The notes under the pieces were generated by a model that was given only the letters and a program-made list of their open reading frames with translations, had not been told where the DNA came from and did not search any database. From positions 50,957 through 114,956 of the forward strand of contig DATKDW010000062.1 in NCBI GenBank assembly GCA_035512495.1: a DNA stretch of 64,000 bases, written 5' to 3'. How positions within the stretch are numbered: position 1 is the first letter of the stretch; every line of letters begins with the position of its first letter. This document shows positions 9,037 to 64,000 of the stretch, piece by piece. Source of the DNA: Acidimicrobiales bacterium (GTDB lineage Bacteria; Actinomycetota; Acidimicrobiia; Acidimicrobiales; CADCSY01). The position numbers and the translations under genes are program-made.

Positions 9037-9128
9037 GTCGACCGCCACACCGGGACCGTACCCTCGGGGAGACGGCGGACCCCCGAGCGTGACAGCGGAC
9101 ACATGGGGCGCGTCTAGGTTCCTTGCGC

Positions 9129-18198: not shown

Positions 18199-18261
18199 GG
18201 GCCGAACGTACCGCCCACCCCTCGACGAGGGCGACTCGTCGCCGCGCCGTACCATCGGGGC

Positions 18262-44302: not shown

Positions 44303-44364
44303 GCCGGCGATGGTAGCGACCGGGCGGGGGGCGACCGGTGGACCGGTGCCGAGTCAGGGTGCCG

Positions 44365-44628: not shown

Positions 44629-44631
44629 GGC

Positions 44632-45153: not shown

Positions 45154-45181
45154 CAGGGGACTCCTCCTTGCGAGGTGGACG

Positions 45182-45883: not shown

Positions 45884-46533
45884 GGCGCGATCCAGACGGC
45901 GAGGGCCTGGCGCTCGGGATCGCCGCCGGCCCGGTGCGACCAGTGGGCGTCGCTGCACGCTGTGCACGTGCCGCGGTCGTCGACCTCGGTGACACCGGCG
46001 GCGGCGAGGGCGGCGTGGACCCCGGCCGGGAGGTCGAGGGCGGGCCGGCCGGCGGCGGTGGTCGAACGAACGTGGTCACCGAGAGCGGAGGCCACCTCGT
46101 CGAGATCGGCGTCCCCGAACTCGTAGCACGACGGGTGGATGCAAGGCCCCACCACGGCACGGACCGGACCCGGGGCGAGGTCGCGCACCGCCTCGACCGA
46201 TGACGCCACGATGCCGGCGGCCAGCCCTCGCCAACCGGCGTGGACGGCAGCAACGGCACCCTCCCCGATCAGGGCGATGGGGGCGCAGTCGGCGGTCTGG
46301 ACCGAGACCACGGCCCCTGGCACGGCGGTCACGGCGGCGTCGGCCTCGGTCCCGGCGTGCGCACCGGGCGCCTCGACCCGCACGACCCGCGCCCCGTGGA
46401 CCTGGCGGAGCCACGTCCACGGCGCGTCGACGACTGCCCGTCGCCGGGCGTCGACGCCGGTCGAGTCGACGGCGAGGTCGCCGTCGGCCCGTCCGGTGAA
46501 GCGGATCTCGATCCTGCCGCCCAGCGCCCTCAG
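45880..46533 (-). CDS. pgeF: YfiH/YlmD (PgeF) family purine nucleoside phosphorylase / laccase-domain protein
   Basis: [31 protein letters not shown] and CT.C....SHR. The 5' end is provisional: no ATG/GTG/TTG lies between 46533 and the ORF-track start at 46665. Confidence 0.8.
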
Positions 46534-47609
46534 CGGAGGAAGGAGGGGACGTCGAAGTCGTCGTCGCCCTCGAGGTCGACCTCGTCGTCGGCGAAGACGT
46601 CTCGCCCACCCTCGTCGCCTGCCAGCGGGCGGGCGCGCTCCGAGCGGTCCTTGCCCTCCTCCCACCGGTCGAAGCCGGCGGCGATGACGGTGACGCGCAC
46701 CTCGTCGCCCATCGAGTCGTCGATGACCGTCCCGAAGATGATGTTGGCGTCGGGGTGGGCCACGCCGTGGATGACCTCGGCAGCCTCGTTGACCTCGAAG
46801 AGGCCGAGGTCGCTGCCGCCGGAGATGCTGAGCAGGATGCCGCGAGCACCTTCGATGGACGCCTCGAGCAGCGGGCTCGAGATCGCGGCGCGGGCGGCGT
46901 TGAGCGAGCGGCCCTCGCCCGACCCGTAGCCGATGCCCATGAGGGCGGACCCGGCATTGGTCATGATCATCTTGACGTCGGCGAAGTCGGTGTTGATCAG
47001 TCCCGGCGTCGTGATGAGCTCGGTGATGCCCTGCACGCCCTGGAGCAGCACCTCGTCGGCCATCTTGAAGGCGTTGAGCACCGAGGTCTTCTCGTTCGAG
47101 ACCGTGAGGAGCCGGTCGTTCGGGATGACGATGAGGGTGTCGACCTCGTCCTTCAGGCGCTGGATGCCCTGCTCGGCCTGGACCGAGCGGTTGCGCCCCT
47201 CGAAGGCGAAGGGCCGGGTGACCACGCCGATGGTGAGCGCCCCCAGGCTCTTGGCGATCTGGGCCACCACCGGGGCGCCACCGGTCCCGGTTCCGCCGCC
47301 CTTGCCGGCGGTGATGAACACCATGTCGGCGCCCTGGAGAGCGGCCTCGACCTCGGCACGGTGGTCCTCGGCGGCCTGGCGGCCGACCTCGGGGTCGCTG
47401 CCCGCCCCGAGGCCGCGGGTGACGTCCTGGCCGATGTCGAGCTTGAGCTCGGCGTCGCTCATCAACAGCGCCTGGGCGTCGGTGTTGACGGCGATGAACT
47501 CCACGCCCTTGAGCCCGGCATCGATCATGCGGTTGACGGCGTTGACGCCGCCCCCGCCGACGCCGACGACCTTGATCACCGCGAGGTAGTTCTGGGGGTT
47601 GCCGGCCAT
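46530..47609 (-). CDS. ftsZ: cell division GTPase FtsZ
   Basis: [27 protein letters not shown] and NTDFADV. GGGAGGG sits 6 nt upstream of the ATG ([11 protein letters not shown]). C-terminal [10 protein letters not shown] tail. Confidence 0.98.
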
Positions 47610-47746
47610 GTGTGTCCCTCCCGGGGAGTCAGTGGCGGCGGACCGCCGAACGTGCAAATGGCCGGGCTGACCCACAGGGGTCCCGCCCGGCCTTTACCTC
47701 AGGTGGAGGTTGAGCGTTCTGTCAACCTCTCGTTGTGATCGAGACT
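47610..47746 (-). promoter_or_regulatory. ftsQ-ftsZ intergenic leader with two hairpins
   Basis: GAGGTTGA (47706-47713) pairs with TCAACCTC (47722-47729). GGCCGGGC (47660-47667) pairs with GCCCGGCC (47685-47692). Confidence 0.35.
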
Positions 47747-48574
47747 CTACCCTCCCTCCGTCGTGCGGGTCAAGGCGGGCGACGTGGGCACCCGCACATC
47801 GATGGTCGCCACGCCCTCGAGGTTGGCACCGGCGAGCACGGCCTCCAGCGCCAGCAGCTTGGCCTCCAAGGCCTCGGGCGGGCCGAGGAGCGCCAGCGCA
47901 GACCGCTCCCCTCCGGCGATGGCGACCTTGGCGGTGAGGGCACCTTCGTCGTCGGCGACCACCGCCAGGACGTCCGGGCGAAGGGCCCCGGAGAGCATCG
48001 ACGCCACCCGGAGGGCCCCGGCGGCAGGGGCGCCGAGCAGATCGCCGACCTCACCGGCGACGCCGACCCCCTCGATCCGCGTGATCCCGCGGGGCACGTC
48101 GGCCACGCGCGCCAGCTGGTGGCCCTCGGCGTCGATGAGCATCCAGTCCGACTCCCCCGCCAGCGCCGCCACCGCCCGGCGCTCGACCACCTCGACCCGC
48201 ACCGTCCCGGGCCAGTCACGCATCACCCGGGCGTCGGCGACCCACGGCAGCGCCCGCACCCGTGCCGCAGCGCGGGCGGTGTCGAGGGTCACCATCGCCT
48301 CACCAGGACTGATGTCCGACGCTGCCCGCACCTCATCGGCGCCGGTCTGGCGTGCGCCCTTCACCTCCAGGGCATCGACATCGAGCAGCGGCGACAGCGC
48401 CAGGCCCCACAGCATCGCCACGACGCCCAGGGCGGCGGCGGCGAGACCGGCGCGGCGCAGGCGACGGCGGCCCTCGTGGCGTGCCACCTCGATGCGCCGG
48501 GCCCGGATGCGGGGGTCGATCACCGGTCTGGCCGGCCGTACCCTGGGCCGCCGAGGCGGCGCCGTGCTGCTCAA
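47747..48574 (-). CDS. ftsQ: cell division protein FtsQ
   Basis: Basic N-terminus, one TM helix and a POTRA-like region (LDVDALEVKGARQTGADEV). TTGA overlap with the murB stop (TTG start). Confidence 0.85.
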   Translation of the reverse strand: MSSTAPPRRPRVRPARPVIDPRIRARRIEVARHEGRRRLRRAGLAAAALGVVAMLWGLALSPLLDVDALEVKGARQTGADEVRAASDISPGEAMVTLDTARAAARVRALPWVADARVMRDWPGTVRVEVVERRAVAALAGESDWMLIDAEGHQLARVADVPRGITRIEGVGVAGEVGDLLGAPAAGALRVASMLSGALRPDVLAVVADDEGALTAKVAIAGGERSALALLGPPEALEAKLLALEAVLAGANLEGVATIDVRVPTSPALTRTTEGG

Positions 48575-49551
48575 CCCTCGACCTGCGATCGAGGGTCAAG
48601 CGATCGAGGGTCAGGGAAGCCGACGAGGCGCACCTCGGGGTGGAGGGCCACGCCGGTCTCGGCCTCGACCCGGCGCTGAACCTCGACGATCAGGGCCGCC
48701 ACGTCGTCAGCCCGGCCATCGGGATCGGCCTGGATGAAGTTGGCGTGCTTGTCCGAGACCTCGGCGGAGCCGAGTCTCATCCCCCGGCAGCCCGCCACGT
48801 CGACGAGGCGCCCGGCGGAGTCGCCAGGTGGGTTGGTGAAGACCGACCCTGCGTTCTGGCCGCCAGGCTGGTTGGCGCGCCGCCAGCGCACGATCTCGGA
48901 GACCTCCGCTGAGGCGGCTGCGGCATCACCCGGCGTCAGCTGGAACTCGGCGTCGAGGACGACTTGGGAGGGTCGCACCGCGGAGCGGCGGTAGCCGAGG
49001 TCGAGGTCACGGGCGAGCACCTGCTCATCGTTGCCGGTGGCGAGGTCGAATGCGCGGACCCGCAGCAGGGTCGCCGCCGTGTCGGAGCCGTGGCCCCCGG
49101 CGTTCATCCGCACCGCTCCACCCACCGTCCCGGGCACCCCGACCGCCCACTCCAGCCCGCGGAGGCCAGCCTTGGCGGTCCGGCGGGCCAGGACCGGCAG
49201 CGCCACGGCCCCACCGGCCCGCACGGTGGCCGAGCCGGCATCCAGCTCGATCCTGGCAAAGGCTTCACCGAGCACCAGGGCGAGGCCGGAGAAGCCGGCA
49301 TCGGCGACCAGCAGGTTGGAGCCGTTGCCGACCACCAGGGTGGGGATGCCACCCGCGTCGGCCGCCGCCCGGAGCGCCTCGGCGGCCAGGGCGAGGTCGT
49401 CGTCGCCCTCCACCTCCAGCAGGAGGGCCGCGGTGCCGCCCACCCGGTAGGTCGTGCGCGGGCCGAGGGGTTCGTCCCGCCGAGCTCGGGACCCGAGCAC
49501 GGCCGCCGCCGCGCCGAGGGCCGCCGGGTCGGTCACGGCGGTCCCGCTCAC
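48571..49551 (-). CDS. murB: UDP-N-acetylenolpyruvoylglucosamine reductase
   Basis: [35 protein letters not shown] and [12 protein letters not shown] overlap with the murC stop. Confidence 0.92.
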
Positions 49552-50981
49552 CCCGGCGACCCACCAACGAGCGGCAGGAGCTCGCCGGGGAGGGTGGTCA
49601 GGTCGCCGGCGCCGAGGGTCAGGCAGAGGTCGCCCGGCCGCAGCTCGTGGACGAGCCACGACCGGAGGTCGTCGCGCCGAGGCAGCCAGGCCACCCGCTG
49701 GTGGGGGTGGGCGTCGAGAACGGCATCGACGATGAGCTTGCCCGAGACGCCCGGGATCGGCGCCTGCCCGGCGGCGTAGATGTCGGTGACCGCGACCACG
49801 TCGGCATCGGTGAAGGCATCGGCGAAGGATCGCCACAGGTCGGCTGTCCGGGTGTAGCGGTGAGGCTGGAAGGCGCACACGATCCGGTCCCACCCACCGG
49901 CCCGGGCCGCCTCGAGCACCGACGCCACCTCGGTCGGGAGGTGGTCGTAGCTGTCGACGAAGGTCACGCCGCCGGCCTCGCCCCGTCGCTCGAAGCGCCG
50001 TCCCACGCCGGCGAAGGCGGCCAGGCCACGTCGGAGGCCCTCGACGTCGGCGCCGAGGGCACGGCCGACGGTGACCACGGCTGCCGCGTTGCGGGCGTTG
50101 TGCAGCCCCGGCGACGGCAGGCGGAAGCGACCGAGGTCGTCGGCCCCGGCCCGCAGGGCGAAGCTGACGCCGTCGCGGTCGGTCGTCACGTCGAAGAGCT
50201 GCACGTCGGCGGCCTCGCTCGTTCCGTAGGTGGTGCACCCGCCGACCCGGGTGGCCAGGGCGGCAGCGACGGGGTCGTCGGCGCACACCACCCGCGGGCC
50301 GGGCGAGGCGAGCAGGAAGCGGGCGAAGGCGTCCTGGAGCGCCTCGAAGCTGCCGTGGTGATCGAGGTGGTCGGGCTCGACGTTGGTGACGATGACCGCC
50401 TCGGCACCGAGCTCGAGGAAGGTCCCGTCGCTCTCGTCGGCCTCGACCACGAACCAGCCGTCGATACCCCCTCCCCATGCGGCGCCGGTGCCGATCCCGT
50501 TGACGTCGCCGCCCACGATGAACGACGGCTCAAACCCCGCCTCGCGGAGGGCGATGGCGAGCATCGCCGTGGTGCTGGTCTTGCCGTGGGTGCCGCTGAC
50601 CGCCACCGTTCGCCGGGTGGCGCAGATGGCTGCCAGCGCCTCGGCCCGTCGCAGCACGGGCACACCGGCGGCCCGGGCGGAGGCGACGTCGGGGTCGTCG
50701 GCGCGGATCGCCGTCGAGATCGCCACCGCGTCGGCGGCGGCGGCACCCTCCGGGTCGGCCCCCACGGTGACGGCGATGCCCAGGCCGGCGAGGCGGTCGA
50801 GGACCGCAGACGGCCGCTGATCGCTACCCGACACCTGGTGGCCCATGGCGACGAGCACGGTGGCGATGGCGCTCATGCCCGAACCGCCGATGCCGACGAC
50901 GTGCAGGCGGCTGGGGACGGAGAGGTCGAGGGAGGAGGCGCCGATGGGCGCCGAGACTACCGCCCGGGCGACCTCGGCCAT
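49548..50981 (-). CDS. murC: UDP-N-acetylmuramate--L-alanine ligase
   Basis: HVVGIGGSGMSAIA, VSGTHGKTSTTAM and EADESDGTF. Start is ATG 50981; GTG 50990 is an alternative. Confidence 0.93.
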   Translation of the reverse strand: MAEVARAVVSAPIGASSLDLSVPSRLHVVGIGGSGMSAIATVLVAMGHQVSGSDQRPSAVLDRLAGLGIAVTVGADPEGAAAADAVAISTAIRADDPDVASARAAGVPVLRRAEALAAICATRRTVAVSGTHGKTSTTAMLAIALREAGFEPSFIVGGDVNGIGTGAAWGGGIDGWFVVEADESDGTFLELGAEAVIVTNVEPDHLDHHGSFEALQDAFARFLLASPGPRVVCADDPVAAALATRVGGCTTYGTSEAADVQLFDVTTDRDGVSFALRAGADDLGRFRLPSPGLHNARNAAAVVTVGRALGADVEGLRRGLAAFAGVGRRFERRGEAGGVTFVDSYDHLPTEVASVLEAARAGGWDRIVCAFQPHRYTRTADLWRSFADAFTDADVVAVTDIYAAGQAPIPGVSGKLIVDAVLDAHPHQRVAWLPRRDDLRSWLVHELRPGDLCLTLGAGDLTTLPGELLPLVGGSPG

Positions 50982-51022
50982 CGTGCCCACCCCGCTGCCG
51001 GGCGTGGCAGAATCGCCCCTCC

Positions 51023-52147
51023 ATGGCTGCCGGCGACCTCTCCTTCGTGATCGCCGCCGGCGGCACCGGCGGTCACATCTACCCGGGGCTGGCGTTGGCG
51101 GAGGCGATCCGCCGGGCACGCCCTGAGGCGGCGATCGCCTTCGCCGGCACGAGCCGGGGGCTCGAGGGGCGCCTGGTGCCCGAGGCCGGCCACCCCCTGC
51201 ACGTCTACGGGATGGTGCAGTTCGCGGGGAGGGGCTGGCGCAAGGCGCTGGTCCCGCTCGCCCTCGGCCGCGCATCGCTCCAGGCCCGCTCGATCCTGCG
51301 CCGCGCCTCGGCCGACGTGGCCGTCAGCATGGGTGGCTACACGGGGATCCCCCTTGTCGTCGGCGCCCGGCTGGCCCGGGTCCCCTCGCTGATCCACGAG
51401 CCCGGGGCGGTGCCCGGCAAGGCCAACACCCTCGCCGCCCGCTTCACCCGCAACGTGGCGACCTCGTTCCCCCAGACCCGCTTCGGCGGCACCGAGGTCC
51501 GTCACGTGGGCTACCCCCTGCGCACCTCCATCACCTCCTTCGACCGGGACGCCCTGCGGGCCGACTCCCGCCGCGCGTTCGGCCTCGCCAACGGGACCGC
51601 GATGGTCCTCGTCACGGGCGGGAGCCAGGGTGCGATGTCGCTCAACCGCCTCGCCCTCGGCCTCGCCGAGCGCTGGGCCGGCCGCGACGACATCCGCATC
51701 GTCCTCAAGGCCGGCGCCCGCAGCCACGAGGAGGTGGAGTCGGCGCTGACCGCCAACCCCGGCGGTCACCTCGTCGACCTGGTGCGCTACATCGACCGCA
51801 TGGACCACGCCTATGCCGCCGCCGACGTGGCGGTGTGCCGGGCCGGGGCCGGGACGGTCACCGAGCTGGCCATCGTGGGTCTGCCCTCGGTGCTGGTCCC
51901 CTATCCCCACGACGAGCACGACGAGCAGGTCCACAACGCCGAGCCGCTGGTGGCGTCGGGCGGCGCCGTGCTGGTGCGCGACCACGAGGCGACCGCCGAG
52001 GTCGTCGGTCCTGTGCTCGAAGCTCGCCTGGGCGATCCCACCAGGCTCACCGAGATGCAGGCGGCCATGCGGGCCAGCGCCCGGCCGCACGCCGCCGACG
52101 ACCTCGCCGCCTGGGCGATCGAGCTGGCCGAGCGGGGGCGGCGGTGA
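51023..52147 (+). CDS. murG: UDP-N-acetylglucosamine--N-acetylmuramyl-(pentapeptide)-pyrophosphoryl-undecaprenol GlcNAc transferase; opposite strand to the rest of the dcw cluster
   Basis: AAGGTGGHIYPGLALAEA, SMGGYTG, VTGGSQGA, AADVAVCRAGAGTVTELA and DEQVHNAEPL align with E. coli MurG as I recall it. Confidence 0.92.
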   Translation: MAAGDLSFVIAAGGTGGHIYPGLALAEAIRRARPEAAIAFAGTSRGLEGRLVPEAGHPLHVYGMVQFAGRGWRKALVPLALGRASLQARSILRRASADVAVSMGGYTGIPLVVGARLARVPSLIHEPGAVPGKANTLAARFTRNVATSFPQTRFGGTEVRHVGYPLRTSITSFDRDALRADSRRAFGLANGTAMVLVTGGSQGAMSLNRLALGLAERWAGRDDIRIVLKAGARSHEEVESALTANPGGHLVDLVRYIDRMDHAYAAADVAVCRAGAGTVTELAIVGLPSVLVPYPHDEHDEQVHNAEPLVASGGAVLVRDHEATAEVVGPVLEARLGDPTRLTEMQAAMRASARPHAADDLAAWAIELAERGRR

Positions 52148-53166
52148 CCCTCTCCCCCACCCAACCCGCGGTCGAGGCGCTGCGCGCCCTGGAGGCCGGC
52201 TTCGCCCCGGTGCTCGAGGACGGCCGCGTCGTGGGCACGGTGTCCGACCGCTCCATCCGCCGGACCCTGCTCACCACCGCCGACTGGTCGGCGCTGCGGG
52301 TCGCCGACGTCCTCGACGACCCGCCCCTCACCGTGTCCCCGTCGACGCCCGACGTCGAGGTCCGGGCGGTGCTCGAGCGCAACCATGTCCGCGCCGTCGC
52401 CGTGGTCGACGACGACCGCCTCGTCGGCACCCGCACGGTCGCCGACGTCGAGGCGGCCATCCCGGCCACCACCGCGGTCGTCATGGCCGGTGGCAAGGGC
52501 AGCCGGCTCCAACCCCTCACCGACAAGGTCCCCAAGCCGCTGCTGGCGGTGGGGCGGGCGTCGATCCTCGAGCGCCTGCTCGAGAACTTCCACGAGGCGC
52601 TCGTCGGCGACGTGTGGCTGGCCGTCAACTACATGTCGGAGATGATCGAGGACCGCATCGGCGACGGCTCCGACTGGGGGGTGCGAGCCCGCTACCTCCA
52701 CGAGGAGCAGCCGCTGCACACTGCCGGGGCGCTGGCGCTGCTGCCCGAGCGCCCCGAGGGGCCCATCCTGGTCACCCACGCCGACCAGGTCACGACCCTG
52801 CCGTTCGCCCGGATGGTCGACTACCACCTGGCCGAGGGGGCAGCGATCACGGTCGGGGCCTTCTACCACGAGGTCGCGGTCCCCTACGGGGTGCTGCGCA
52901 TCGACGAGGTGGCGCTCACGGAGATCGACGAGAAGCCGACGCTGCGCTTCCCCTGCTTCGCCGGCTTCACCGTCCTCGACCCGGCGATGCTCGACCTGGT
53001 GCCGCCAGCGACGGTGTTCTCCATGGTCGACCTGATCGAGGCGGCCCGCGCCGCCGGCCACCGGGTGGTGGTGTTCCCGATCGTCGAGATGTGGCTCGAC
53101 ATCGGCAACTGGGAAGAGCTCAACCGGGCCCTCCTGTGGTCCGTGACCGGCGAAGAGGTGATGTAG
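52144..53166 (+). CDS. CBS-domain pair fused to a sugar-phosphate nucleotidyltransferase
   Basis: GTG start in a GTGA overlap with the murG stop. The N-terminal ~120 aa is CBS-like (VLEDGRVVGTVSDRSIRR and AVAVVDDDRLVGTRTVADV), followed by VVMAGGKGSRLQPLTDKVPKPLL. Confidence 0.8.
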   Translation: MTLSPTQPAVEALRALEAGFAPVLEDGRVVGTVSDRSIRRTLLTTADWSALRVADVLDDPPLTVSPSTPDVEVRAVLERNHVRAVAVVDDDRLVGTRTVADVEAAIPATTAVVMAGGKGSRLQPLTDKVPKPLLAVGRASILERLLENFHEALVGDVWLAVNYMSEMIEDRIGDGSDWGVRARYLHEEQPLHTAGALALLPERPEGPILVTHADQVTTLPFARMVDYHLAEGAAITVGAFYHEVAVPYGVLRIDEVALTEIDEKPTLRFPCFAGFTVLDPAMLDLVPPATVFSMVDLIEAARAAGHRVVVFPIVEMWLDIGNWEELNRALLWSVTGEEVM

Positions 53167-54150
53167 GTGAAGTGGTCGGACAAGACGGTGCTCGTCACCG
53201 GCGGCGAGGGGTTCATCGGCTCCACGCTGGTCGAGCGGCTCGTGCAGGAGGGTGCCCGCGTGCGGGCCCTGACGCTGTACAACCCCTTCGGCCGGTACGG
53301 CTGGCTCGACCCGGTGGTCCACACCGAGGTGGAGGTGCTCCCCGGCGACGTCCGCGACGCCGAGCGCACCTTCGAGGCCGTCGACGGCTGCGACGTGGTC
53401 TTCCACCTCGCGGCGCTCATCGGCATCCCCTACAGCTACGTGGCCCCGGAGAGCTACGTGCAGGTCAACGTGAACGGGACCACCAACGTGGCCATGGCCT
53501 GCCGCCGTGCGGGCGTGGAGCGGATGGTCCACACCTCCACCAGCGAGACCTACGGCACCGCCATCACCGCCCCCATCAGCGAGGACCACCCGCTCCAGCC
53601 GCAGTCCCCGTACTCGGCCTCCAAGATCGGCGGCGACATGATGGCGCTGTCGTTCCACCACGCCTTCGAGCTCCCGGTGGCGGTGGTGCGGCCCTTCAAC
53701 ACCTATGGCCCCCGCCAGTCCAACCGCGCCGTGATCCCCACCATCCTCACCCAGCTCCACGCCGGGGCGACCGAGATCAAGCTCGGGAGCACCACCCCCA
53801 CGCGCGACTTCAACTACGTCGACGACACCGTCGCCGGCTTCCTCGCCGTCGCCGCCTGCGACCGGGCGGTGGGCGAGGTCGTCAACATCGGCTCCGGACG
53901 GGAGATCTCCATCGGCGACCTGGTGCGGACCCTCATCGAGGTCACCGGGGCCGAGGCCGAGGTGGTCACCGACCCGGACCGGATGCGTCCCGCAGGCTCG
54001 GAGGTGGAGCGGTTGCTCTGCGACAACAGCCGGGCCCGGGAGTGGGCGGGCTGGGAGCCCGAGGTGAGCCTCGAGGAGGGTCTGCGCCGGACCTCCGACT
54101 GGATCCGCGAGCACCGCCACCTGATCGACACCGCCGGCTACGCCGTCTGA
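53167..54150 (+). CDS. extended-SDR NAD-dependent nucleotide-sugar epimerase/dehydratase
   Basis: VTGGEGFIGS, STSETYG and YSASK (YxxxK). GTG start immediately follows the upstream TAG stop. Confidence 0.88.
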   Translation: MKWSDKTVLVTGGEGFIGSTLVERLVQEGARVRALTLYNPFGRYGWLDPVVHTEVEVLPGDVRDAERTFEAVDGCDVVFHLAALIGIPYSYVAPESYVQVNVNGTTNVAMACRRAGVERMVHTSTSETYGTAITAPISEDHPLQPQSPYSASKIGGDMMALSFHHAFELPVAVVRPFNTYGPRQSNRAVIPTILTQLHAGATEIKLGSTTPTRDFNYVDDTVAGFLAVAACDRAVGEVVNIGSGREISIGDLVRTLIEVTGAEAEVVTDPDRMRPAGSEVERLLCDNSRAREWAGWEPEVSLEEGLRRTSDWIREHRHLIDTAGYAV

Positions 54151-54170
54151 CCGTCCCCGGGGGGGAACAC

Positions 54171-55346
54171 GTGAGCGAACTGAGCACGCCGGCCGGGCCC
54201 ACGGACCGACCGGGCACGCCGAGGAGCCTCCTGCCCACCCTGGCCCGGGCCGGCTCCGTCGCCTGGTGGCTCGTGGGCATCGGCCTCGCCGTCTCGTTCG
54301 CGTTCATCCTCTTCTTGCGGCTGCGGCTGGTGATGCTTCCGCTGATCATCGCCCTCCTGATCACCACCCTCCTCCAGCCGCTCGCCGACCGCTTGGAGCG
54401 ACTCGGCCTCCGCCGACTCCCCGCCACCTGGCTGGTCTTCTTCGGGGGGGCGGCGGTCGTCATCGGAGCCCTGGTGCTGATCGTGCCCCAGACGGTCGGG
54501 CAGTTCGCGCAGCTCGGCGAGGACCTCGAGTCGGCCCTCAGGGAGATCGAGGAGTGGCTCGTCACCGGCCCCCTCGACCTCTCGGAGCAGCAGGTCGAGG
54601 GGTACGTGAACCAGGCCATCGACTCGATCCGCGGGGACACCGGGTCCGCGATCACCTCCCGGCTGCTCACCGGTGCCGCCATCGCCGGCGAGATCCTCGC
54701 CGGGATCGCCCTCTCGCTCGTGCTGGTCTTCTTCTTCGTCAAGGACGGGCACCAGATCGCCGAGTGGGCCTACGGCCACGCCCCCGACGACCGTCGGGCC
54801 GCCTACCGGGCCGCCGGGCAGCGGGCCTGGGAGAGCCTCGCCGGCTACCTGCGCGGAACGGCAATCACCGGGATGCTCGATGCCGTCCTCATCGGGCTCG
54901 GCCTCCTCGTCATCGGCGTGCCCCTCGTGCTCCCCCTAGCGATCATCACCTTCTTCGCCGCCTTCTTCCCCGTGGTCGGGGCCCCGACCGCGGGGCTGCT
55001 GGCGGTGCTCGTGGCACTGGTCAGCGGCGGGTTCCGGGACGCCCTCACCGTCCTCGCACTGGTCTTCGTGGTGCAACAGATCGAGAGCTACCTCTTCGCA
55101 CCGTCGATCATGGGCCGGGCCGTGCGCCTCCATGCCGTGGTCGTCCTGGTCGTGCTCACCACTGGCGGGCTCATGGCCGGGCTGATCGGCGCGTTCCTCG
55201 CCGTCCCCACCACTGCCGTGGCCGTCGCCGTGGTCTCGGAGCTGCGGGCGTGGGACCGCCGCGGCGGGGCGCCTGGACCCGTGGGGCCGCCGGTGTCACT
55301 ACCCCTCGACGCTGCCTCCCGGCACCGGGGGCCGTCAGCGGGTTAG
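54171..55346 (+). CDS. AI-2E (PerM/YhhT) family transporter
   Basis: Polytopic membrane protein with FFFVKDG and FFAAFFPVVGAP motifs typical of the family. GTG start in frame within ORF 51813..55346. Confidence 0.85.
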   Translation: MSELSTPAGPTDRPGTPRSLLPTLARAGSVAWWLVGIGLAVSFAFILFLRLRLVMLPLIIALLITTLLQPLADRLERLGLRRLPATWLVFFGGAAVVIGALVLIVPQTVGQFAQLGEDLESALREIEEWLVTGPLDLSEQQVEGYVNQAIDSIRGDTGSAITSRLLTGAAIAGEILAGIALSLVLVFFFVKDGHQIAEWAYGHAPDDRRAAYRAAGQRAWESLAGYLRGTAITGMLDAVLIGLGLLVIGVPLVLPLAIITFFAAFFPVVGAPTAGLLAVLVALVSGGFRDALTVLALVFVVQQIESYLFAPSIMGRAVRLHAVVVLVVLTTGGLMAGLIGAFLAVPTTAVAVAVVSELRAWDRRGGAPGPVGPPVSLPLDAASRHRGPSAG

Positions 55347-56533
55347 TGCCTCGCGGCCCGCTCCGCGGGGTGGGCCGGTGAGCGCCGGGCGAGGCCACGG
55401 CCCTGGCGGGCGATGTTCAGGAGGATCCCGCAGGACGCCATCACCAGCAAGATCGACGACCCGCCGTAGGAGATGAACGGCAGCGTCACGCCGGTGATCG
55501 GGAGGATCCCGATCACCCCGCCGATGTTGACGAAGGCCTGCACCACGACCCAGGCGGTGATCCCCGCCGCCACCAGGGTCCCGAACCGGTCGGGGGCGGC
55601 GATGGCGACCTTGGTGCCGAGGACGGCGAAGCCCACGAAGCACGCCACGACCGCCAAGCCGCCGACGAGGCCGAGCTCCTCGGCGATGATGGCGAAGATG
55701 AAGTCGGTGTGGGCGTTGGGGAGGAACCCGTACTTCGCCCGGCTGGCGCCGAGGCCGACGCCGAGCAGGCCGCCCGAGGCCACCCCCATCAGCGACTGGT
55801 TGATGTGGTAGCCGACGTTGCCGGGGTCGGCCGACGGGTCGAGGAAGGCGAGGATGCGACGCCGTCGGTACGGCGCCCGGAGGGCGAGCACGACGGCGGC
55901 GGCGCCACCGGCGGCGACGACGGCGCTGAGGCGCAGGAGGGGCACCCCGGCCACGAACAGCACGGCGACGACGATGGCTCCGATCACGAGAGTGGACCCG
56001 AGGTCGGGCTGCAGCAACATCAGCCCCGAGGTGACGATGAGCACCGTCAGCACCGGCCGGAGGGTGACCCGTTCCTCGGCCATGCGGTCGGCGCGACGCG
56101 TCAGCAGGTCGGCGGCGAAGAGCAGCGCCGCCAGCTTCACCAGCTCGGCGGGCTGGAAGCGCACCGCCCCGGAGCCCACCCACCGGCCGGCGCCGTTGAC
56201 CTCGATGCCCACCCCCGGGACGAGGACGGCGACCAGCAGCAGCCACGAGAGCCCGAGGAGCGGCACTGCGACGCGGCGCCAGCGCCGGTAGTCGACCCGC
56301 ATCGCCGCCACCAGCGCAGCCGTGCCGACGGCGACGTAGAGCGCGTGGCGCACGAAGTACGTCCAGGTGGAGTCTGTCTCCTCGAACGCCTGCACCGAGG
56401 AGGCCGAGAGCACCATGACCAGGCCGATGGTGCTGAGCACCGCGACCAGCGCGGCGAGGAGGGCAAAGGTGGAGGTGCCGGCGGGCGTCGGCGCCGGGCG
56501 GCGGCGGCTGGTGGGCGCGGCGGTCCGGCTCAC
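55343..56533 (-). CDS. ftsW: lipid II flippase / SEDS peptidoglycan glycosyltransferase FtsW
   Basis: FtsW/RodA/SpoVE family: RFQPAELVKLA, PDLGSTLV, HTDFIFAIIAEELG and PFISYGGSS. Confidence 0.92.
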   Translation of the reverse strand: MSRTAAPTSRRRPAPTPAGTSTFALLAALVAVLSTIGLVMVLSASSVQAFEETDSTWTYFVRHALYVAVGTAALVAAMRVDYRRWRRVAVPLLGLSWLLLVAVLVPGVGIEVNGAGRWVGSGAVRFQPAELVKLAALLFAADLLTRRADRMAEERVTLRPVLTVLIVTSGLMLLQPDLGSTLVIGAIVVAVLFVAGVPLLRLSAVVAAGGAAAVVLALRAPYRRRRILAFLDPSADPGNVGYHINQSLMGVASGGLLGVGLGASRAKYGFLPNAHTDFIFAIIAEELGLVGGLAVVACFVGFAVLGTKVAIAAPDRFGTLVAAGITAWVVVQAFVNIGGVIGILPITGVTLPFISYGGSSILLVMASCGILLNIARQGRGLARRSPAHPAERAARH

Positions 56534-57882
56534 CGCCGGCTCCCGCGCTGCTCATGGACGGCCCGGGCGAAGTCGTCGCCGCGCTCCCCGTAGCCGCCGT
56601 ACCAGTCGAACGAGGCGCACCCCGGCGACAGCACCACGGCGTCGCCGGGTCGGGCGACGGCGCGGGCGACATCGACGGCGTCGTCCATCGACGTCGCGGT
56701 GGTGACCTCCACGCCGGTGCCGGCGAAGGCCGTGGTCACCTCGGCCGCCGCCTCACCGATGGCCACCACGTGGCGGAGCCGGTCGGCCGAGTCGGCAAGG
56801 ACCGACAGGTCGAGGCCTTTGTTGCGGCCGCCCGCCAACAGCACCACCGAGTCGAAGCCGGCGATCGCCGCGGCTGTGGCGTGGGGGTCGGTCGCCTTCG
56901 AGTCGTCGTAGAACCGCACCCCGCCATCATCGGCGACCAGGGCCAGCCGGTGGGGGAGCCCCCGGAAGGCCAGAAGGGCGTCCCGCACCGCCTGCCGGGG
57001 GATCCCGGCCTCGAGGGCGCAGGCGGCCGCCGCCAGGGCGTTGGTCAGGTCGTGGGGAAGGGCCCGGAAGAGCTCGTGACCTACAACCAAGACTGACCCG
57101 TCGGGCAGCACCAGGGCTCCGTCCACCACTCGGTAGTCGGTTTGTCCTACGCCGAAGGTCACCACCCGGCCCGGAGCCCCAGAGGCGGCTGCCATCACCA
57201 CGGGATCGTCGGCGTTGACGATGGCGACGTCTTCCGGGCGCTGGCTGGCCCAGATCCGCGCCTTCGAGTGCGCGTAGTGCTCCATGTCGGGGTGCCAGTC
57301 GAGATGGTCCTCGGCCAGGTTGAGCCAGAGGGCGACATCGGGTCGGAAGGTCTCGGTGAACTCCAGCCGGAAGGACGAGGCCTCGACCACGACGAGGTCG
57401 AGGCCGTCGTCGAGCACCGCGACGAGTGGCACATCGTTGTTGCCGGCGGCGGCGGTGCGGCGGCCAGCCGCGGTGACCATGTCGGCGACGAGCGTCGTCA
57501 CCGTGGTCTTGCCGTTGGTGCCGGTGATGGCGACCACCGGTGGAAGACCCCAGCGAGCGGCCAGCTCGAACTCGCTCCAGACCGGCACGCCCCGGTCCAC
57601 AGCGGCGACGAGCACCGGGTGGGTGGGGCAGACCGCGGGACTGGGCACGACCACCGCCACCGTGTCGAGCAGGGCCACCGCCTCCTCTCCCGAGGGCGCC
57701 TCCACGAGGGTCAGCCCCAACTCGGTGGCGACCTGCCTGGCACGCTCCCCCGGCTGGTCCTCGATGGCGACCACCTCCACGCCCCGGCGCCGCAGCTCGC
57801 GAGCGGTGACCACCCCCGCTTGGCCGAGGCCGATGACCAGGGCCGGGCCGGGGACGCTGGCGGCCGGCGTCGGGCCGGCCAT
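56530..57882 (-). CDS. murD: UDP-N-acetylmuramoylalanine--D-glutamate ligase
   Basis: ITGTNGKTTVT, FRGLPHRL and DDSKATDPHA. Start overlaps the mraY stop by 1 nt (TGATG). Confidence 0.93.
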   Translation of the reverse strand: MAGPTPAASVPGPALVIGLGQAGVVTARELRRRGVEVVAIEDQPGERARQVATELGLTLVEAPSGEEAVALLDTVAVVVPSPAVCPTHPVLVAAVDRGVPVWSEFELAARWGLPPVVAITGTNGKTTVTTLVADMVTAAGRRTAAAGNNDVPLVAVLDDGLDLVVVEASSFRLEFTETFRPDVALWLNLAEDHLDWHPDMEHYAHSKARIWASQRPEDVAIVNADDPVVMAAASGAPGRVVTFGVGQTDYRVVDGALVLPDGSVLVVGHELFRALPHDLTNALAAAACALEAGIPRQAVRDALLAFRGLPHRLALVADDGGVRFYDDSKATDPHATAAAIAGFDSVVLLAGGRNKGLDLSVLADSADRLRHVVAIGEAAAEVTTAFAGTGVEVTTATSMDDAVDVARAVARPGDAVVLSPGCASFDWYGGYGERGDDFARAVHEQRGSRR

Positions 57883-58919
57883 CAGTCGATGACCCCGGGG
57901 ATCGAGATGTAGTCGGCGTAGAAGATGCCCACGCCCATGCCGGTCGCCATCCCCGCCAGGATCCAGAACCGGATGATCACCGTGATCTCCGGCCATCCGC
58001 CCAGCTCGTAGTGGTGGTGGATCGGGGCCATGCGGAACACTCGACGGTGGAAGAGGCGGAACGACGCCACCTGGACGATCACCGACAGCGTCTCGATCAC
58101 GAAGATGCCGCCGACGATCGGCAGCAGGAGGTGGGTGTTGGTCATCAGCGCCAGACCGGCCAGGCCCGAGCCGACGGCGAGGGAGCCGGTGTCGCCCATG
58201 AAGATGCGAGCCGGCGCTGCGTTCCACCAGAGGAAGCCCGCGCACGCCCCGACCATCGCCGCCGCGACCAGCGCCAGGTCGAAGGCGTGGGGCTGGCGAT
58301 AGATCTCGAAGTGGCGGAACGACCAGAAGCCGATGATCACGTATGCCGAGAAGGAGAAGAGGGCGGAGCCGGCAGCCAGGCCGTCGAGCCCGTCGGTGAG
58401 GTTGACGGCGTTGCTGGTCCCGAGGATCAACAGGACCGCCCAGACACCCCACACCCAAGGACCGAGGTCGATGTCAAGGGCATCGAACCGCGTGAAGGAC
58501 AGGTTCGTGCTGACCGGGGTGTGGAACACGGCGATCACGGCGAAGCCGACCGCCACGGTGAGGAGGCCGGCCACCTTGGTCCGCTTGTTGAGGCCGAGGT
58601 TGCGGGCGTTGCGGACCTTGATCCAGTCGTCGAGGAAGCCGACGACGCCTGCACCGGCGATCGCGCCAATGACCAGGAGGCCGCTGCGGGTGAAGATGGC
58701 GCCCTCGCGGAGGTGGGCCAGCACGTAGCCCGCCATCGCGGCGCCCACCACGGTGATGCCCCCCATGGTGGGCGTTCCCGCCTTGGTGAAGTGCCCGCTC
58801 GGGCCGTCCTCGCGGATCGGCTGGCCGATGCCGTGGGCCCGCAGCCAGGTGATGAGGAAGGGCGTCCCCACGAGCGAGACCACGAGGGCGACCCCACTCG
58901 AGATGAGGAGCGCGATCAC
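57882..58919 (-). CDS. mraY: phospho-N-acetylmuramoyl-pentapeptide transferase
   Basis: PTMGG, NAVNLTDGLDGLA, FMGDTGSL and APIHHH. Confidence 0.96.
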   Translation of the reverse strand: MIALLISSGVALVVSLVGTPFLITWLRAHGIGQPIREDGPSGHFTKAGTPTMGGITVVGAAMAGYVLAHLREGAIFTRSGLLVIGAIAGAGVVGFLDDWIKVRNARNLGLNKRTKVAGLLTVAVGFAVIAVFHTPVSTNLSFTRFDALDIDLGPWVWGVWAVLLILGTSNAVNLTDGLDGLAAGSALFSFSAYVIIGFWSFRHFEIYRQPHAFDLALVAAAMVGACAGFLWWNAAPARIFMGDTGSLAVGSGLAGLALMTNTHLLLPIVGGIFVIETLSVIVQVASFRLFHRRVFRMAPIHHHYELGGWPEITVIIRFWILAGMATGMGVGIFYADYISIPGVID

Positions 58920-60373
58920 CGGCCCTCCCCCTCGGCACGGAGGCGGTCGAGCTCCTCACGCACGACGACCCGGTCGTCGAGCTCGATGGTGCGGTCACCG
59001 AGGGTCTGAGTCGTCTCGTGGCCCTTGCCTGCCACGATGACGACATCGCCGTCGGTGGCGTGGCGCAGGGCGAGGGCGATCGCCGCCCGCCGGTCGGGCT
59101 CGACCTCGATCGCCGCCCCGGAGGCGGCACCACTGCGGATGGCATCGATGATGGCCATGGGTTCCTCGCTGCGGGGGTTGTCGGACGTGATGACGCTGAG
59201 GTCGGCCAGCCGGCTCGCCACCTCGCCCATGGCGGGGCGCTTCTCCCGGTCCCGGTCGCCGCCGCACCCGAACACGATGACCACCCTGCCACCGGAGCCG
59301 ATCTCGCGTGCCGCCCGCAGGACCTGCTCGATCCCGTCGGGCGTGTGGGCGTAGTCGACGATCACCGCCACCGGCGGGCCCGCTGCCACCACCTCGAAGC
59401 GCCCGTCGATCGGACCGACCGACGCCAGGCCCTCGGCCACCGCGTCGAGGGGGACCCCGACCTCTAGCGCGGCGGTCGCCGCTGCAAGGGCGTTGCGGAC
59501 GTTGAACTCCCCCGAGAGCGGCAGGTGAATCCGCTCGCCCTGCCACGTGAACGTCGCCCCGGTCATGTGCAGCTCGAGGTCTGACGCGTCGTCGAGGGAG
59601 TAGGGCCTGGTGGGGATGCGGGCGGCATCGAGGAGGAGCCGGCCGTGGGGGTCGTCAGCGTTGACCACCGCACGCTCGGAGCGCTCCGGCTCGAAGAGCA
59701 TCGCCTTGGCCGAGAAGTAGTCCTCCATGGTGGCGTGGATGTCGAGGTGGTCGCGACTGAGGTTGGTGAAGACCGCGACGGCGAAGCGGGTCCCGTCGAC
59801 ACGACGCTGGATCAGGCCGTGAGATGAGACCTCCATCGCCACCGCCTCGGTGCCGGCGGCGAGGAGGGAGGCCAGGCGGGCCTGCAGGTGAGCGGCACCG
59901 GGTGTGGTCGGTGGCTGGGACACGCCGGCGCGGTCGACGGGGCTGAGCGTCCCGATGGTGGCCGCCGGTCTCCCCGCCGCCCGGAGCACCGCGGCGAGGA
60001 TCGCCACCGTGGTCGTCTTGCCGTTGGTGCCGGTGACGCCGACGATGTCGAGGTGGTGGGACGGGTCGCCGTGGAGGCGAGCCGCGAGCGGGCCGATGGC
60101 GGCCCGGCTGGAGGGGACCAGCACCTGTGGCACCGCCAGCGGGAGCTCGCGCTCGCACACCAGCGCCACCGCGCCCCGGGCGACCGCGTCGGCGGCGAGG
60201 TCGTGGCCGTCGACGTTCGCCCCCGGCACGCAGCAGTAGAGCGAGCGCTCCGCCACCTCGCGGGAGTCCTCGGTCACCGCCGTCACCGACACCTCGCCGG
60301 GGTCGCCGACGAGCTCGACGTCGGTGATGGCGTCGAGGAGGTCGGTCAGGGGGACGGGGGCATGTTCGGCCAC
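58916..60373 (-). CDS. murE: UDP-N-acetylmuramoyl-L-alanyl-D-glutamate--2,6-diaminopimelate ligase (MurE, not MurF)
   Basis: VTGTNGKTTT, DYAHTPDG, FGCGGDRDREKRPAMG, TSDNPRSEEP and AGKGHE are MurE signatures. No MurF-type YNANP or GDM.ELG motifs. Confidence 0.92.
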   Translation of the reverse strand: MAEHAPVPLTDLLDAITDVELVGDPGEVSVTAVTEDSREVAERSLYCCVPGANVDGHDLAADAVARGAVALVCERELPLAVPQVLVPSSRAAIGPLAARLHGDPSHHLDIVGVTGTNGKTTTVAILAAVLRAAGRPAATIGTLSPVDRAGVSQPPTTPGAAHLQARLASLLAAGTEAVAMEVSSHGLIQRRVDGTRFAVAVFTNLSRDHLDIHATMEDYFSAKAMLFEPERSERAVVNADDPHGRLLLDAARIPTRPYSLDDASDLELHMTGATFTWQGERIHLPLSGEFNVRNALAAATAALEVGVPLDAVAEGLASVGPIDGRFEVVAAGPPVAVIVDYAHTPDGIEQVLRAAREIGSGGRVVIVFGCGGDRDREKRPAMGEVASRLADLSVITSDNPRSEEPMAIIDAIRSGAASGAAIEVEPDRRAAIALALRHATDGDVVIVAGKGHETTQTLGDRTIELDDRVVVREELDRLRAEGEGR

Positions 60374-60379
60374 GCCGCT

Positions 60380-62266
60380 TCAGTCTCGCGGCACGACGAT
60401 GGTGTCGGGGTCGACCACCACGGGCGGCTCGACGATCGGGGTGGCCGAGGGCGGGATCCGCAGGAGGCGCAGGGCGTACCTGGAGATGCCACCGAACACC
60501 GGAGCCGAGGTCAGGCTGGCGTAGTAGGGGCTCGGCTCGTCGAGGACGACGATGGCCGAGAGCTGGGGGTCCTCGGCCGGCACGAAGCCCGCGAAGGTGG
60601 CAACGTAGGCCCCCTCCTCGTACCCCCGGTGGGTCCTCGACGGCTTGCGGGCAGTCCCGGTCTTGCCCGCCACGCTGTAGCCCGCGATCTGGGCTCGCTG
60701 GCCCGTCCCCTCCGTCGAGGCCACCACGTTGGTGAGGATGGCCCGCATCTGCTCGGCCGACGCGGCCGAGATCACCCGCCGCCGGGGTGACCGGTCGGCG
60801 AGGTGCTCGGTGCCGTCGGCGTCGAGGGTGGACCGCACGAGGGTCGGTGTGACGAGGACACCGTCGTTGGCGATGGCATTGAAGGCCCCGAGCATCTGCA
60901 GCGCGTTGACGGCGATGCCCTGGCCGATGGAGATCGACCCGATGGACGGCCCCGTCCACTCGTCCAGGTCGAGGAGGATGCCGTTGGACTCCCCCGGGAA
61001 CCCGAGCCCGGTGGACTGCCCGAAGCCGAACCGACGCAGATAGGCGTCGACCCGCTCGGGGCCGAGGGCCTGCCCGATCTGGATCGTGCCAACGTTGGAC
61101 GACCTCGTGATGACGTCGGTGAACGAGCTCGGGCCGGACCTCGGGTGCTCGTCGGAGAAGCGCTTCACCGAGACCTGGACCGCAGGCGGGACCTCCCAGG
61201 TCTGCTCGGGCGTGTAGAGGCCCTCCTCCAGCGCGGCTGCCGCAACGACCACCTTGCTGACCGAACCGGGCTCGAAGAGCGTGGTCACGGCCATGTTGTC
61301 CCGGCTGGGCCGAGGCGGGCCTCCGGCGGCGTCGGCCCGAAGGTTGGCCAGCGCCAGGATCTCACCCGTGCGCGGGTCCATCACGATGGCGCTGCCGCCG
61401 GCGGCGCCGGTGGCGAGGATCTGGTCGCCGAGCGCGCGCTCGACCTCGTACTGCAGCGAGCGGTCGATGGTGAGCACGAGGTCGTCGCCCCGCTCGGCCG
61501 GCGACAGCCGGTGCTCCCCTGCCGCGATGGTCCGGCCTCCCGGTCCCCGCTCGAGAATCAGCTCGCCCGGCACACCGACGAGGCGGTCCTCGTAGACCAG
61601 CTCGAGGCCGGCGGTGCCCTGGTTGTCGATGTCGACGGTGCCGAGCACCGACGCCGCCAGCGATCCCGCCGGGGTGAAGCGGTGCGACTCGTCGAGCAGG
61701 CTGACGCCATCGAGGCCGAGGCTGCTCACGGTCTCGGCCACGTCGGCGTCGACCTGGCGCGACAGGTACACGAACGCGCCGCTGCCGCCGAGGCGCCGGA
61801 CGAGCACCTCGTGGTCGACCCCGAGCACCGGGGCCAGGGCGTCGGCGGCCCCCTCTGGGTCGGTCACCAGCCGGGGGTCGGCCCAGACGGTGTGCCGGCG
61901 GACGGACATGGCCAGCTCGCTGCCGTTGCGGTCGAAGATGGATCCCCGCTCGGCCGGGAGCACGATCGCACGCAGCCGCTGGGCGACTCCCCTCGCCGCG
62001 TAGTCGTCGGGAGAGACCACCTGCAGCTGGGTCAGGCGGACGGCCACGAGGGCGAAGGCCAGCGCCAGGGCGACCAGGAGTCCGAGGGCCCGTCGGGCCG
62101 GCGACCCGACGCCGGCCTGGGGACGCGCCGGGGGGCGGCGGGCAGGGGGCGGCGGCCTGCCGGCCCGGCTCCCGGTTCGGGCAGGGCGCGGGCGGGTGGC
62201 TGCGCGAGGTGGAGCGCCCCCGGGCCGGCGTGGTGCGCCACGCCGCGGAGGGCGCGTCGCCGTCAC
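60380..62266 (-). CDS. ftsI: penicillin-binding protein, division-specific transpeptidase (FtsI/PBP3 class B)
   Basis: TM anchor, a dimerisation domain and a transpeptidase domain with PGSVSKV (SxxK), SSN and KTGTA. GTG at 62266 gives a GTGA overlap with the ftsL stop; the ORF-track start is 62302. Confidence 0.9.
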   Translation of the reverse strand: MTATRPPRRGAPRRPGGAPPRAATRPRPARTGSRAGRPPPPARRPPARPQAGVGSPARRALGLLVALALAFALVAVRLTQLQVVSPDDYAARGVAQRLRAIVLPAERGSIFDRNGSELAMSVRRHTVWADPRLVTDPEGAADALAPVLGVDHEVLVRRLGGSGAFVYLSRQVDADVAETVSSLGLDGVSLLDESHRFTPAGSLAASVLGTVDIDNQGTAGLELVYEDRLVGVPGELILERGPGGRTIAAGEHRLSPAERGDDLVLTIDRSLQYEVERALGDQILATGAAGGSAIVMDPRTGEILALANLRADAAGGPPRPSRDNMAVTTLFEPGSVSKVVVAAAALEEGLYTPEQTWEVPPAVQVSVKRFSDEHPRSGPSSFTDVITRSSNVGTIQIGQALGPERVDAYLRRFGFGQSTGLGFPGESNGILLDLDEWTGPSIGSISIGQGIAVNALQMLGAFNAIANDGVLVTPTLVRSTLDADGTEHLADRSPRRRVISAASAEQMRAILTNVVASTEGTGQRAQIAGYSVAGKTGTARKPSRTHRGYEEGAYVATFAGFVPAEDPQLSAIVVLDEPSPYYASLTSAPVFGGISRYALRLLRIPPSATPIVEPPVVVDPDTIVVPRD

Positions 62267-63734: not shown

Positions 63735-63746
63735 GGTGGTCTCCGC

Positions 63747-63965: not shown

Positions 63966-64000
63966 TTGTCTCGTCGTCGGTCGTCGGTCGTCGATCAGAA

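Follow-up and report, generated by a model that had tools for sequence, protein, structure and literature searches.

A predicted nucleotidyltransferase and a predicted LegB-like dehydratase encoded next to murG in an inverted block of the dcw cluster of Acidimicrobiales and related Actinomycetota

We analysed a 64,000-nt stretch of DNA from an Acidimicrobiales bacterium (hereafter the window; assembly GCA_035512495.1, contig DATKDW010000062.1, positions 50,957 to 114,956), which carries a division and cell wall (dcw) cluster. The dcw genes of the window lie on the minus strand, and four plus-strand genes sit between ftsW and murC (Table 1). These encode the lipid II synthase MurG of glycosyltransferase family 28 (GT28), a sugar-1-phosphate nucleotidyltransferase with a CBS region (NTase), an extended short-chain dehydrogenase/reductase (SDR) and an AI-2E family permease. 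All four identities were confirmed with Pfam and NCBIfam (GT28 N- and C-terminal domains, CBS plus NTP_transferase, extended SDR and AI-2E_transport), and on a public contig with identical proteins an independent gene caller placed all four genes at these boundaries. The orientation of the murG block is opposite to that of every other dcw gene in the window, in both the upstream and the downstream sets, and the canonical arrangement, in which all genes are co-directional and murC directly follows murG, was not found there. Comparison with related loci indicates that the conserved unit is murG-NTase-SDR, without the AI-2E gene.

The genes of this block are closely packed. The GTG start of the NTase gene (52144-52146) overlaps the TGA stop of murG (52145-52147) as GTGA, with GGGGG located 6-10 nt upstream. 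The TAG stop of the NTase gene (53164-53166) abuts the GTG start of the SDR gene (53167-53169) with a spacer of 0 nt and with GAGG upstream, and the SDR stop (TGA, 54148-54150) is separated from the GTG of the AI-2E gene at 54171 by 20 nt containing GGGGGGA. An earlier interpretation made from the letters alone (the sequence-only reading) had proposed tight coupling to murG from these three junctions. They are exact in the sequence, the tight coupling to murG is conserved in related loci, and the close spacing is no chance property of this single sequence. Of 30 related loci, at least 21 offer an in-frame NTase start with a 4-nt overlap of the murG stop, and the SDR start lies -4 to +5 nt from the NTase stop in most of the related loci. 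Moreover, overlapping or abutting junctions are kept across the different architectures described below, including genomes of 56-58% GC.

Table 1. Coordinates of the genes and features of the locus (window numbering) and of the Streptomycetaceae cassettes compared with it (numbering of the respective loci).
Feature	Position	Strand	Remark
ftsZ	46530-47675	-	dcw gene
ftsQ	47747-48574	-	dcw gene
murB	about 48571-49551	-	dcw gene
murC	49548-50981	-	left boundary; starts the murC-murB-ftsQ-ftsZ half of dcw; Mur ligase domains in orthologous loci
divergent spacer, 41 nt	50982-51022	.	between murC ATG (50981, -) and murG ATG (51023, +)
murG (lipid II synthase, GT28)	51023-52147	+	PF03033 + PF04101; first gene of the inverted block
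CBS + sugar-1-phosphate nucleotidyltransferase (NTase, PtmE-like)	52144-53166	+	PF00571 + PF00483
extended SDR, LegB-like, predicted NAD-dependent NDP-GlcNAc 4,6-dehydratase	53167-54150	+	TIGR04180, legB identity
AI-2E family permease	54171-55346	+	PF01594, 196 bits
ftsW	55343-56533	-	right boundary of the inverted block; FTSW_RODA_SPOVE in orthologous loci
murD	56530-57882	-	dcw gene
mraY	57882-58919	-	dcw gene
murE	58916-60373	-	dcw gene; runs straight into mraY
ftsI	60380-62302	-	dcw gene
rsmH	62745-63734	-	dcw gene
murG-like + SDR cassette carriers: Kitasatospora sp. NBC_01300; GCA_036242395.1; Streptomyces kronopolitis-type strain; Embleya sp.	L094 4555-10984; L095 5870-10228; L096 5821-10174; L097 3843-8234		cassette carriers

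The SDR matched the LegB model TIGR04180 with 456.5 bits over model positions 1-296 of 297, the cutoff being 475. Its identity is 49.5% to C. jejuni legB and 52-59% to genes that carry the LegB annotation in complete legionaminic-acid (Leg) clusters. Among relatives at 81-82% identity, the NCBI name is LegB for some and no more than 'SDR family' for others, indicating that the clade straddles the LegB cutoff. The catalytic residues T125-S126-E127...Y149xxxK153 display the [ST]SE...Yx3K signature; T-S-E...Y-x3-K is listed as the signature of GDP-mannose 4,6-dehydratases, while epimerases lack the Glu (PMC8987622). The window SDR and C. jejuni LegB have in common the TSE...YxxxK triad, an identical catalytic block (HTSTSE.YG...SPYSASK), a longer block in agreement (HTSTSE.YGTA...HPLQPQSPYSASKI...RPFNTYGPRQS) and the YN(S/P)F..GWL loop; the last corresponds to the N-terminal LYNxF..GWLD loop that the sequence-only reading had picked out, and which is indeed common to the SDR and LegB. 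In a 54-member alignment, 93 positions were at least 90% conserved in both the murG-linked and the Leg-cluster groups, and five were group-specific. The characterised LegBs of C. jejuni and Tannerella forsythia convert only GDP-N-acetylglucosamine (GDP-GlcNAc), with NAD+ (PMC5378307). Judged by these similarities, the SDR very probably works like LegB. We do not file it as LegB itself, since it scores below the curated cutoff and lacks the nonulosonic-acid context. In a distance-based neighbour-joining tree, all 37 actinobacterial SDRs (from inverted, colinear and stand-alone loci, four non-murG loci and four Streptomycetaceae genomes) formed a single group separate from the LegBs of Leg clusters. 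A structure of LegB or PtmE was not found in the PDB, where the matches were generic SDRs and NTases. Heptose chemistry of the HddC/DmhA type was also considered and was rejected, as the heptose dehydratase structure was a much weaker match.

The NTase has a CBS region at about residues 1-105 (PF00571, two stretches) and PF00483 at residues 111-329, which is the PtmE architecture of an N-terminal CBS pair joined to a sugar-1-phosphate nucleotidyltransferase. Outside its own clade, the nearest full-length relatives are the CBS-NTases of Leg clusters (39% identity at 97% coverage for one from a complete cluster, L010), and relatives of up to 41% identity sit in complete Leg clusters of Bacteroidota, Bacillota, Sulfurovum and an Iamiaceae metagenome-assembled genome (MAG). 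The PtmE of C. jejuni is specific for GTP and glucosamine-1-phosphate (GlcN-1-P), and the GDP-linked legionaminic acid route of this organism has also been shown in T. forsythia (PMC5378307). By homology, the pair would carry out the same two-protein chemistry as PtmE (Cj1329) and LegB (Cj1319) in the first steps of CMP-legionaminic acid synthesis in C. jejuni. The PtmE/LegB-type identity that the sequence-only reading had suggested for the two proteins was borne out on both sides, and sequence comparison places the enzymes as new members of known families, PtmE-like and LegB-like. Its suggestion of a CBS ligand-sensing branch does not extend to all members, since some murG-linked orthologues (297-303 aa; P0028, P0080) lack the second CBS motif. 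Recycling of UDP-MurNAc by a MurU-type enzyme was rejected for the NTase, which scored 100 bits against a cutoff of 250 and has PtmE-like proteins as its closest full-length relatives.

The same comparisons bear on a simpler explanation, in which the pair would serve ordinary UDP-sugar supply, the NTase being a GlmU- or MurU-like uridylyltransferase and the SDR a UDP-GlcNAc 4-epimerase. MurU is indeed among the best NCBIfam and PDB matches of the NTase domain, the top PDB match of the SDR is named UDP-glucose 4-epimerase, and a related cassette in Streptomycetaceae, described below, needs no dedicated NTase. However, these matches are generic: the NTase reaches 76-100 bits, and the SDR about 157 bits, compared with 456 bits on the LegB model. 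The SDR also has a dehydratase TSE triad identical to that of LegB, the acid/base Glu of which epimerases lack, and the full-length CBS plus NTase architecture fits PtmE-like proteins. We regard this explanation as very improbable.

The first protein of the block has both GT28 domains and the donor and acceptor motifs of MurG, and its score on the MurG model TIGR01133 is marginally below the cutoff (247.9 versus 250.25 bits). The GGTGGH, GGSQGA, CRAGAxTVTE and Q..NA motifs align with the MurG structures of E. coli and P. aeruginosa (1F0K/1NLM, 3S2U, 7D1I). As a dcw-embedded protein, the MurG of the trio is presumably the housekeeping enzyme.

We then examined the conservation of the trio by scanning one genome per species with an NTase alignment and mapping the neighbours by tblastn, with thresholds that we set ourselves. 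Members of the NTase/SDR clade in which the upstream flank is present were taken as evaluable (n = 31), and organism names are those of the record titles. We found murG directly upstream of the NTase gene in 27 of the 31. The trio is inverted within dcw in 16 genomes (records titled Acidimicrobiales, Acidimicrobiia or Actinomycetota) and colinear within dcw, all on one strand, in seven (records titled Mycobacteriales, Frankiaceae or Actinomycetota MAGs), where the order is murE-murF-mraY-murD-ftsW-murG-NTase-SDR-murC-(murB)-ftsQ-ftsZ. It stands alone in three genomes, two of which have unrelated flanks (ABC-F ATPase, histidine kinase, threonine dehydratase, NDH-2) and 56-58% G+C, and one further genome has a contig too short to classify. 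On metagenome or MAG contigs with NTase identities of 77%, 66%, 57%, 55% and 54%, the arrangement was invariably murG(+)-NTase(+)-SDR(+) between murC(-) and ftsW(-). Occurrence in relatives away from murG, which the sequence-only reading had named as the observation that would speak against coupling, was seen in only four of the 31 evaluable members, and the linkage holds in the remaining 27. These four lie in polysaccharide clusters, and two of them adjoin GT4, DegT aminotransferase and hexapeptide acetyltransferase genes, the company expected of a 4-keto-sugar producer. The inversion of the murG block, the colinear and stand-alone trios and the Streptomycetaceae cassette had all been missed by that reading.

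The permease showed a different pattern. The sequence-only reading had cast the AI-2E protein as the membrane component of the sugar module, a role that the comparison does not support: its gene adjoins the SDR gene only in the window and the identical contig, two opposite-strand genes lie between the two in the nearest relative (L002/L003), and it is absent from all other related loci examined. The slot between SDR and ftsW is variable and is occupied by AI-2E, DUF2382, PNPOx or other unrelated or uncharacterised genes, or by nothing. Because its co-occurrence with the NTase/SDR pair is not conserved, the AI-2E permease is a lineage-specific neighbour, a local passenger outside the system. 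Given that the trio is kept while the stretch between SDR and ftsW varies, the unit under selection is the trio. Among the inverted loci, mean identity to the window was 86.0% for FtsZ, 80.8% for the SDR, 72.3% for MraY, 64.4% for MurG and 56.2% for the NTase, so that among the proteins of the locus only FtsZ is more conserved than the SDR, which by this measure is under stronger constraint than MurG.

These results also allow us to weigh whether the association might be a frozen accident, that is, an old insertion beside murG that has been inherited vertically with no functional tie. The order of dcw genes is very stable once set (PMC8871954), and the slot after the SDR gene takes unrelated cargo, both as such an accident would have it. 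However, the trio has stayed intact through inversion, detachment from dcw and very different GC contents, its junctions still overlap, conservation is higher for the SDR than for MurG, and the pairing of a GT28 with the SDR recurs in Streptomycetaceae in another context. We give this possibility little credence.

As the sequence-only reading had pointed out, no later Leg genes follow the pair: tblastn found no Leg-type aminotransferase, acetyltransferase or synthase in the 64 kb, and genes for LegC, NeuB/NeuC-type enzymes or a CMP-transferase were found neither in the window nor in any murG-linked locus. The pair might nevertheless be the start of a full CMP-legionaminic-acid (nonulosonic acid) pathway, two steps separated from the genes for LegC, H, G, I and F, which would lie elsewhere in the genome. 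Consistent with this, the closest characterised families are PtmE and LegB, the NTase relatives of up to 41% identity come from complete Leg clusters, and NCBI applies the name LegB to some of the 81-82% identical SDRs. The absence of Leg genes from every locus linked to murG argues against it, as does the separate grouping of the murG-linked SDRs from Leg-cluster LegBs. Moreover, a complete legionaminic-acid-type cluster in an Iamiaceae (Acidimicrobiia) MAG (L052 6833-14753) includes an NTase and a LegB of its own that are more distant (41% and 55% identical, respectively), indicating that the class holds both a Leg version and a murG-linked version of the pair, and same-clade pairs outside dcw keep company with DegT, acetyltransferase and GT4 genes but lack NeuB-/NeuC-type genes. 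We consider a displaced legionaminic acid pathway quite unlikely. Unlike the PtmE/LegB systems, the pair of the window is linked to murG, has no LegC, LegH, LegG, LegI or LegF nearby, and belongs to a separate actinobacterial SDR clade.

A second association of a GT28 with this SDR was found in cultured bacteria. The best plasmid match of the SDR (68.5%) lies on a 1.46-Mb linear replicon of Kitasatospora sp. NBC_01300, where a murG-like GT28 gene is directly upstream of the SDR gene and there is no NTase gene. The layout in four cultured Streptomycetaceae genomes (Table 1) is histidine kinase(-), response regulator(-), murG-like(+), SDR(+), with differing outer neighbours, and the murG-like stop and SDR start overlap as ATGA in two of the three genomes other than Kitasatospora. 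The cassette SDRs are 67-70% identical to the window SDR, keep the catalytic block, and form a clade with 91/100 bootstrap support next to one colinear group. More than 100 proteins from Streptomyces, Kitasatospora and Embleya genomes share at least 75% identity with the murG-like protein of the Kitasatospora replicon. MglA (MurG2) is an alternative lipid II synthase of Kitasatospora viridifaciens, for which no linked epimerase or dehydratase is mentioned (PMC8092295). Assignment of the murG-like family to MglA was rejected, because the primer-deduced MglA termini (MRLIVTG..., ...VLLSVVDR) matched none of 120 family members. MglA is thus an example of an extra actinomycete MurG-like GT28 outside dcw, and the Streptomycetaceae cassette carries another paralogue family, a different protein. 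Two side observations concern these loci: an IS605 OrfB/TnpB-type gene (L094 15680-16939) is located some 5 kb away from the murG-like and SDR genes of the Kitasatospora replicon, and in an Actinomycetota MAG a stand-alone murG-NTase trio is preceded, at a distance of about 2 kb, by an OmpR-type response regulator gene (L053, 6139-6801), the product of which is 46% identical to the cassette regulator.

The recurrence of GT28 and SDR raises the possibility that the pair works directly with the GT28: MurG or the murG-like protein would take the SDR product, or a derivative of it, as an alternative donor. Lipid II would then be modified, or a different lipid-linked disaccharide would arise, such as a unit that caps strands or a variant induced by stress or antibiotics. 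MurG or a MurG-like protein is the sole glycosyltransferase consistently linked to the pair, across about 30 genomes and three architectures, and no other finishing enzyme is ever adjacent in murG-linked loci. An NTase, a dehydratase and a glycosyltransferase together also follow the usual logic of sugar operons. The GT28 + SDR pairing persists without the NTase in the four cultured Streptomycetaceae genomes, where the accompanying response regulator and histidine kinase give the layout of an inducible envelope-remodelling cassette. On the other hand, the window MurG keeps the canonical UDP-GlcNAc motifs (GGSQG loop, TVTE, Q..N) and its place in dcw presumably marks it as housekeeping, the SDR keeps nearly all LegB-conserved residues while characterised LegBs accept GDP-GlcNAc only, and a 4-keto sugar lacks the O4 that is needed for glycan polymerisation. 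We therefore hold such alternative donor use to be unlikely. In its full form, which seems to us just as doubtful, GT28 and the LegB-like SDR would be direct biochemical partners, and either GlcNAc would be replaced by a 6-deoxy or 4-keto hexosamine in part of the lipid-linked wall precursors or the cell would make a second lipid-linked disaccharide, constitutively in the Acidimicrobiales type and under two-component control in Streptomycetaceae. If true, this would mean an inducible remodelling of the glycan part of lipid II in Streptomycetaceae, analogous to the VanRS-controlled remodelling of the peptide stem.

The interpretation that we prefer, with belief and doubt about evenly balanced, is that the pair and murG form a translationally coupled operon that feeds a GDP-linked 6-deoxy-hexosamine branch of the cell envelope in proportion to lipid II synthesis. 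In this model, murG, the NTase gene and the SDR gene would be one translationally coupled operon, evolutionarily stable in a large group of Actinomycetota. The NTase would activate GlcN-1-P (or GlcNAc-1-P) with GTP to give GDP-GlcN or GDP-GlcNAc, and by analogy with LegB the SDR would make GDP-2-acetamido-2,6-dideoxy-xylo-hexos-4-ulose. GlcN-1-P is the precursor of UDP-GlcNAc, the donor of MurG, and would also be that of the GDP branch, and therefore coupling to murG would fix the ratio of the two fluxes. The GDP handle would keep the side branch apart from the UDP pool, an idea taken from pyrrolamide synthesis, in which a Man17/Cgc11-type NTase makes GDP-linked GlcNAc described as 'orthogonal' to the UDP-GlcNAc of peptidoglycan (PMC12983305). 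Enzymes encoded elsewhere would then complete the keto-sugar, by aminating or reducing it, and attach it to a glycan of the cell envelope. The persistence of the trio through rearrangements implies a selected link between lipid II synthesis and such a 6-deoxy-hexosamine envelope branch. The data directly show the gene identities, the junctions, the inversion, the upkeep of the trio in its three architectures and the catalytic signature; the substrates, the product, the co-transcription and the reason for the coupling are what we infer from them.

Several observations weigh against this interpretation. Neither beside the pair in any murG-linked locus nor within the 64 kb is there an enzyme that would use up a 4-keto-6-deoxy sugar, and the pathway as seen is incomplete for that reason. 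Co-transcription of murG with the pair is deduced from gene spacing only. The SDR falls 18.5 bits under the curated LegB cutoff, and the split between actinobacterial SDRs and bona fide LegBs has a modest bootstrap value of 44/100. The NTase belongs to no specific curated family, its best NCBIfam match being generic (MurU, 100 bits), and its nucleotide and sugar specificity is consequently read only from its sequence neighbours. The Streptomycetaceae cassette, having no NTase, calls GDP-GlcNAc into question as the SDR substrate there. Finally, all murG-linked trios found come from uncultured organisms, which bears on what can be said of their cell-wall chemistry.

Around the block, the locus agrees with the canonical dcw cluster (mraZ...ftsW-murG-murC...ftsZ) in its genes and their relative order, and it has a canonical GT28 murG. 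It differs in the two sugar-nucleotide genes between murG and murC, in the inversion of the Acidimicrobiales-type block, which splits dcw into two convergent or divergent halves, and in the absence of murF. The pyrrolamide system resembles the trio in having a dedicated NTase (Man17/Cgc11) for a GDP-linked GlcNAc side pathway, but it is a secondary-metabolite cluster with no LegB-type 4,6-dehydratase and no link to murG. Plasmids of Streptomyces californicus (L011 5953-13140) and Deinococcus ficus (L012 6043-16364) also pair a LegB-like SDR (55% identical) with a sugar-1-phosphate NTase. Unlike the trio, these plasmid loci have an NTase without CBS, followed by an NAD(P) oxidoreductase, in an exopolysaccharide context (pelF / spherulin-4 / endo-alpha-1,4-polygalactosaminidase); their layout recalls fungal galactosaminogalactan loci. 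In the searchable literature we found no description of the association of the pair with murG, of an insertion of this kind into dcw, of a class-wide inversion of the murG block, or of a two-component-linked murG-like + SDR cassette. The dcw cluster is among the most conserved bacterial gene arrangements, and MurG is regarded as acting alone in the last step of peptidoglycan synthesis in the cytoplasm. In the present case, abundant uncultured actinobacteria of soil and water, a group at the level of a class, join a predicted GDP-hexosamine activation and dehydration pair to murG. The presence of the cassette in cultured Streptomyces, Kitasatospora and Embleya makes the question testable by genetics and mass spectrometry, and the answer may bring to light a new type of cell-wall modification relevant to lipid II-targeting antibiotics.

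The transcription start of the inverted block must lie within or next to the divergent spacer between murC and murG, the equivalents of which measure 40-290 nt in relatives. Consensus scans of 50400-56000 gave no sigma-70 promoter consensus and no terminator-like site, and no Shine-Dalgarno sequence precedes the murG ATG in the 41-nt spacer. A CAGAAT at 51006-51011, 11 nt before this ATG, is a candidate -10 element of a nearly leaderless mRNA. At the other end of the block, the stop codons of the AI-2E gene (TAG 55344-55346, +) and of the convergent ftsW (TAA 55343-55345, -) overlap, leaving no intergenic space. Because of this, and because there is no terminator-like site, the AI-2E and ftsW transcripts must overlap or collide. 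Scanning 44000-64000 with Rfam returned no match, and inverted repeats flanking the inverted block were limited to GC-rich matches at chance level. The window has 73% G+C, and its uniform base composition gives no sign of recent transfer.

A MurF query gave only paralogue-level matches to MurE, MurD and MurC in the 64 kb. The gene is likewise absent from all inverted-type loci and is present in colinear-type loci (L031, L049, L056). In the Acidimicrobiales MAG GCA_035540955.1 (L005/L006/L029, 12066-14368), murD is absent too, and mraY directly follows ftsW. Far from the dcw cluster, the window holds a second small NTP_transferase gene (7917-8684, -), which adjoins a radical SAM gene (6826-7899, +). 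Its neighbours are of the menaquinone type, with genes for an AMP-binding protein (9123-10709), UbiE (11674-12375), a TPP enzyme (13931-15703), UbiA (16476-17342) and ECH (17353-19383).

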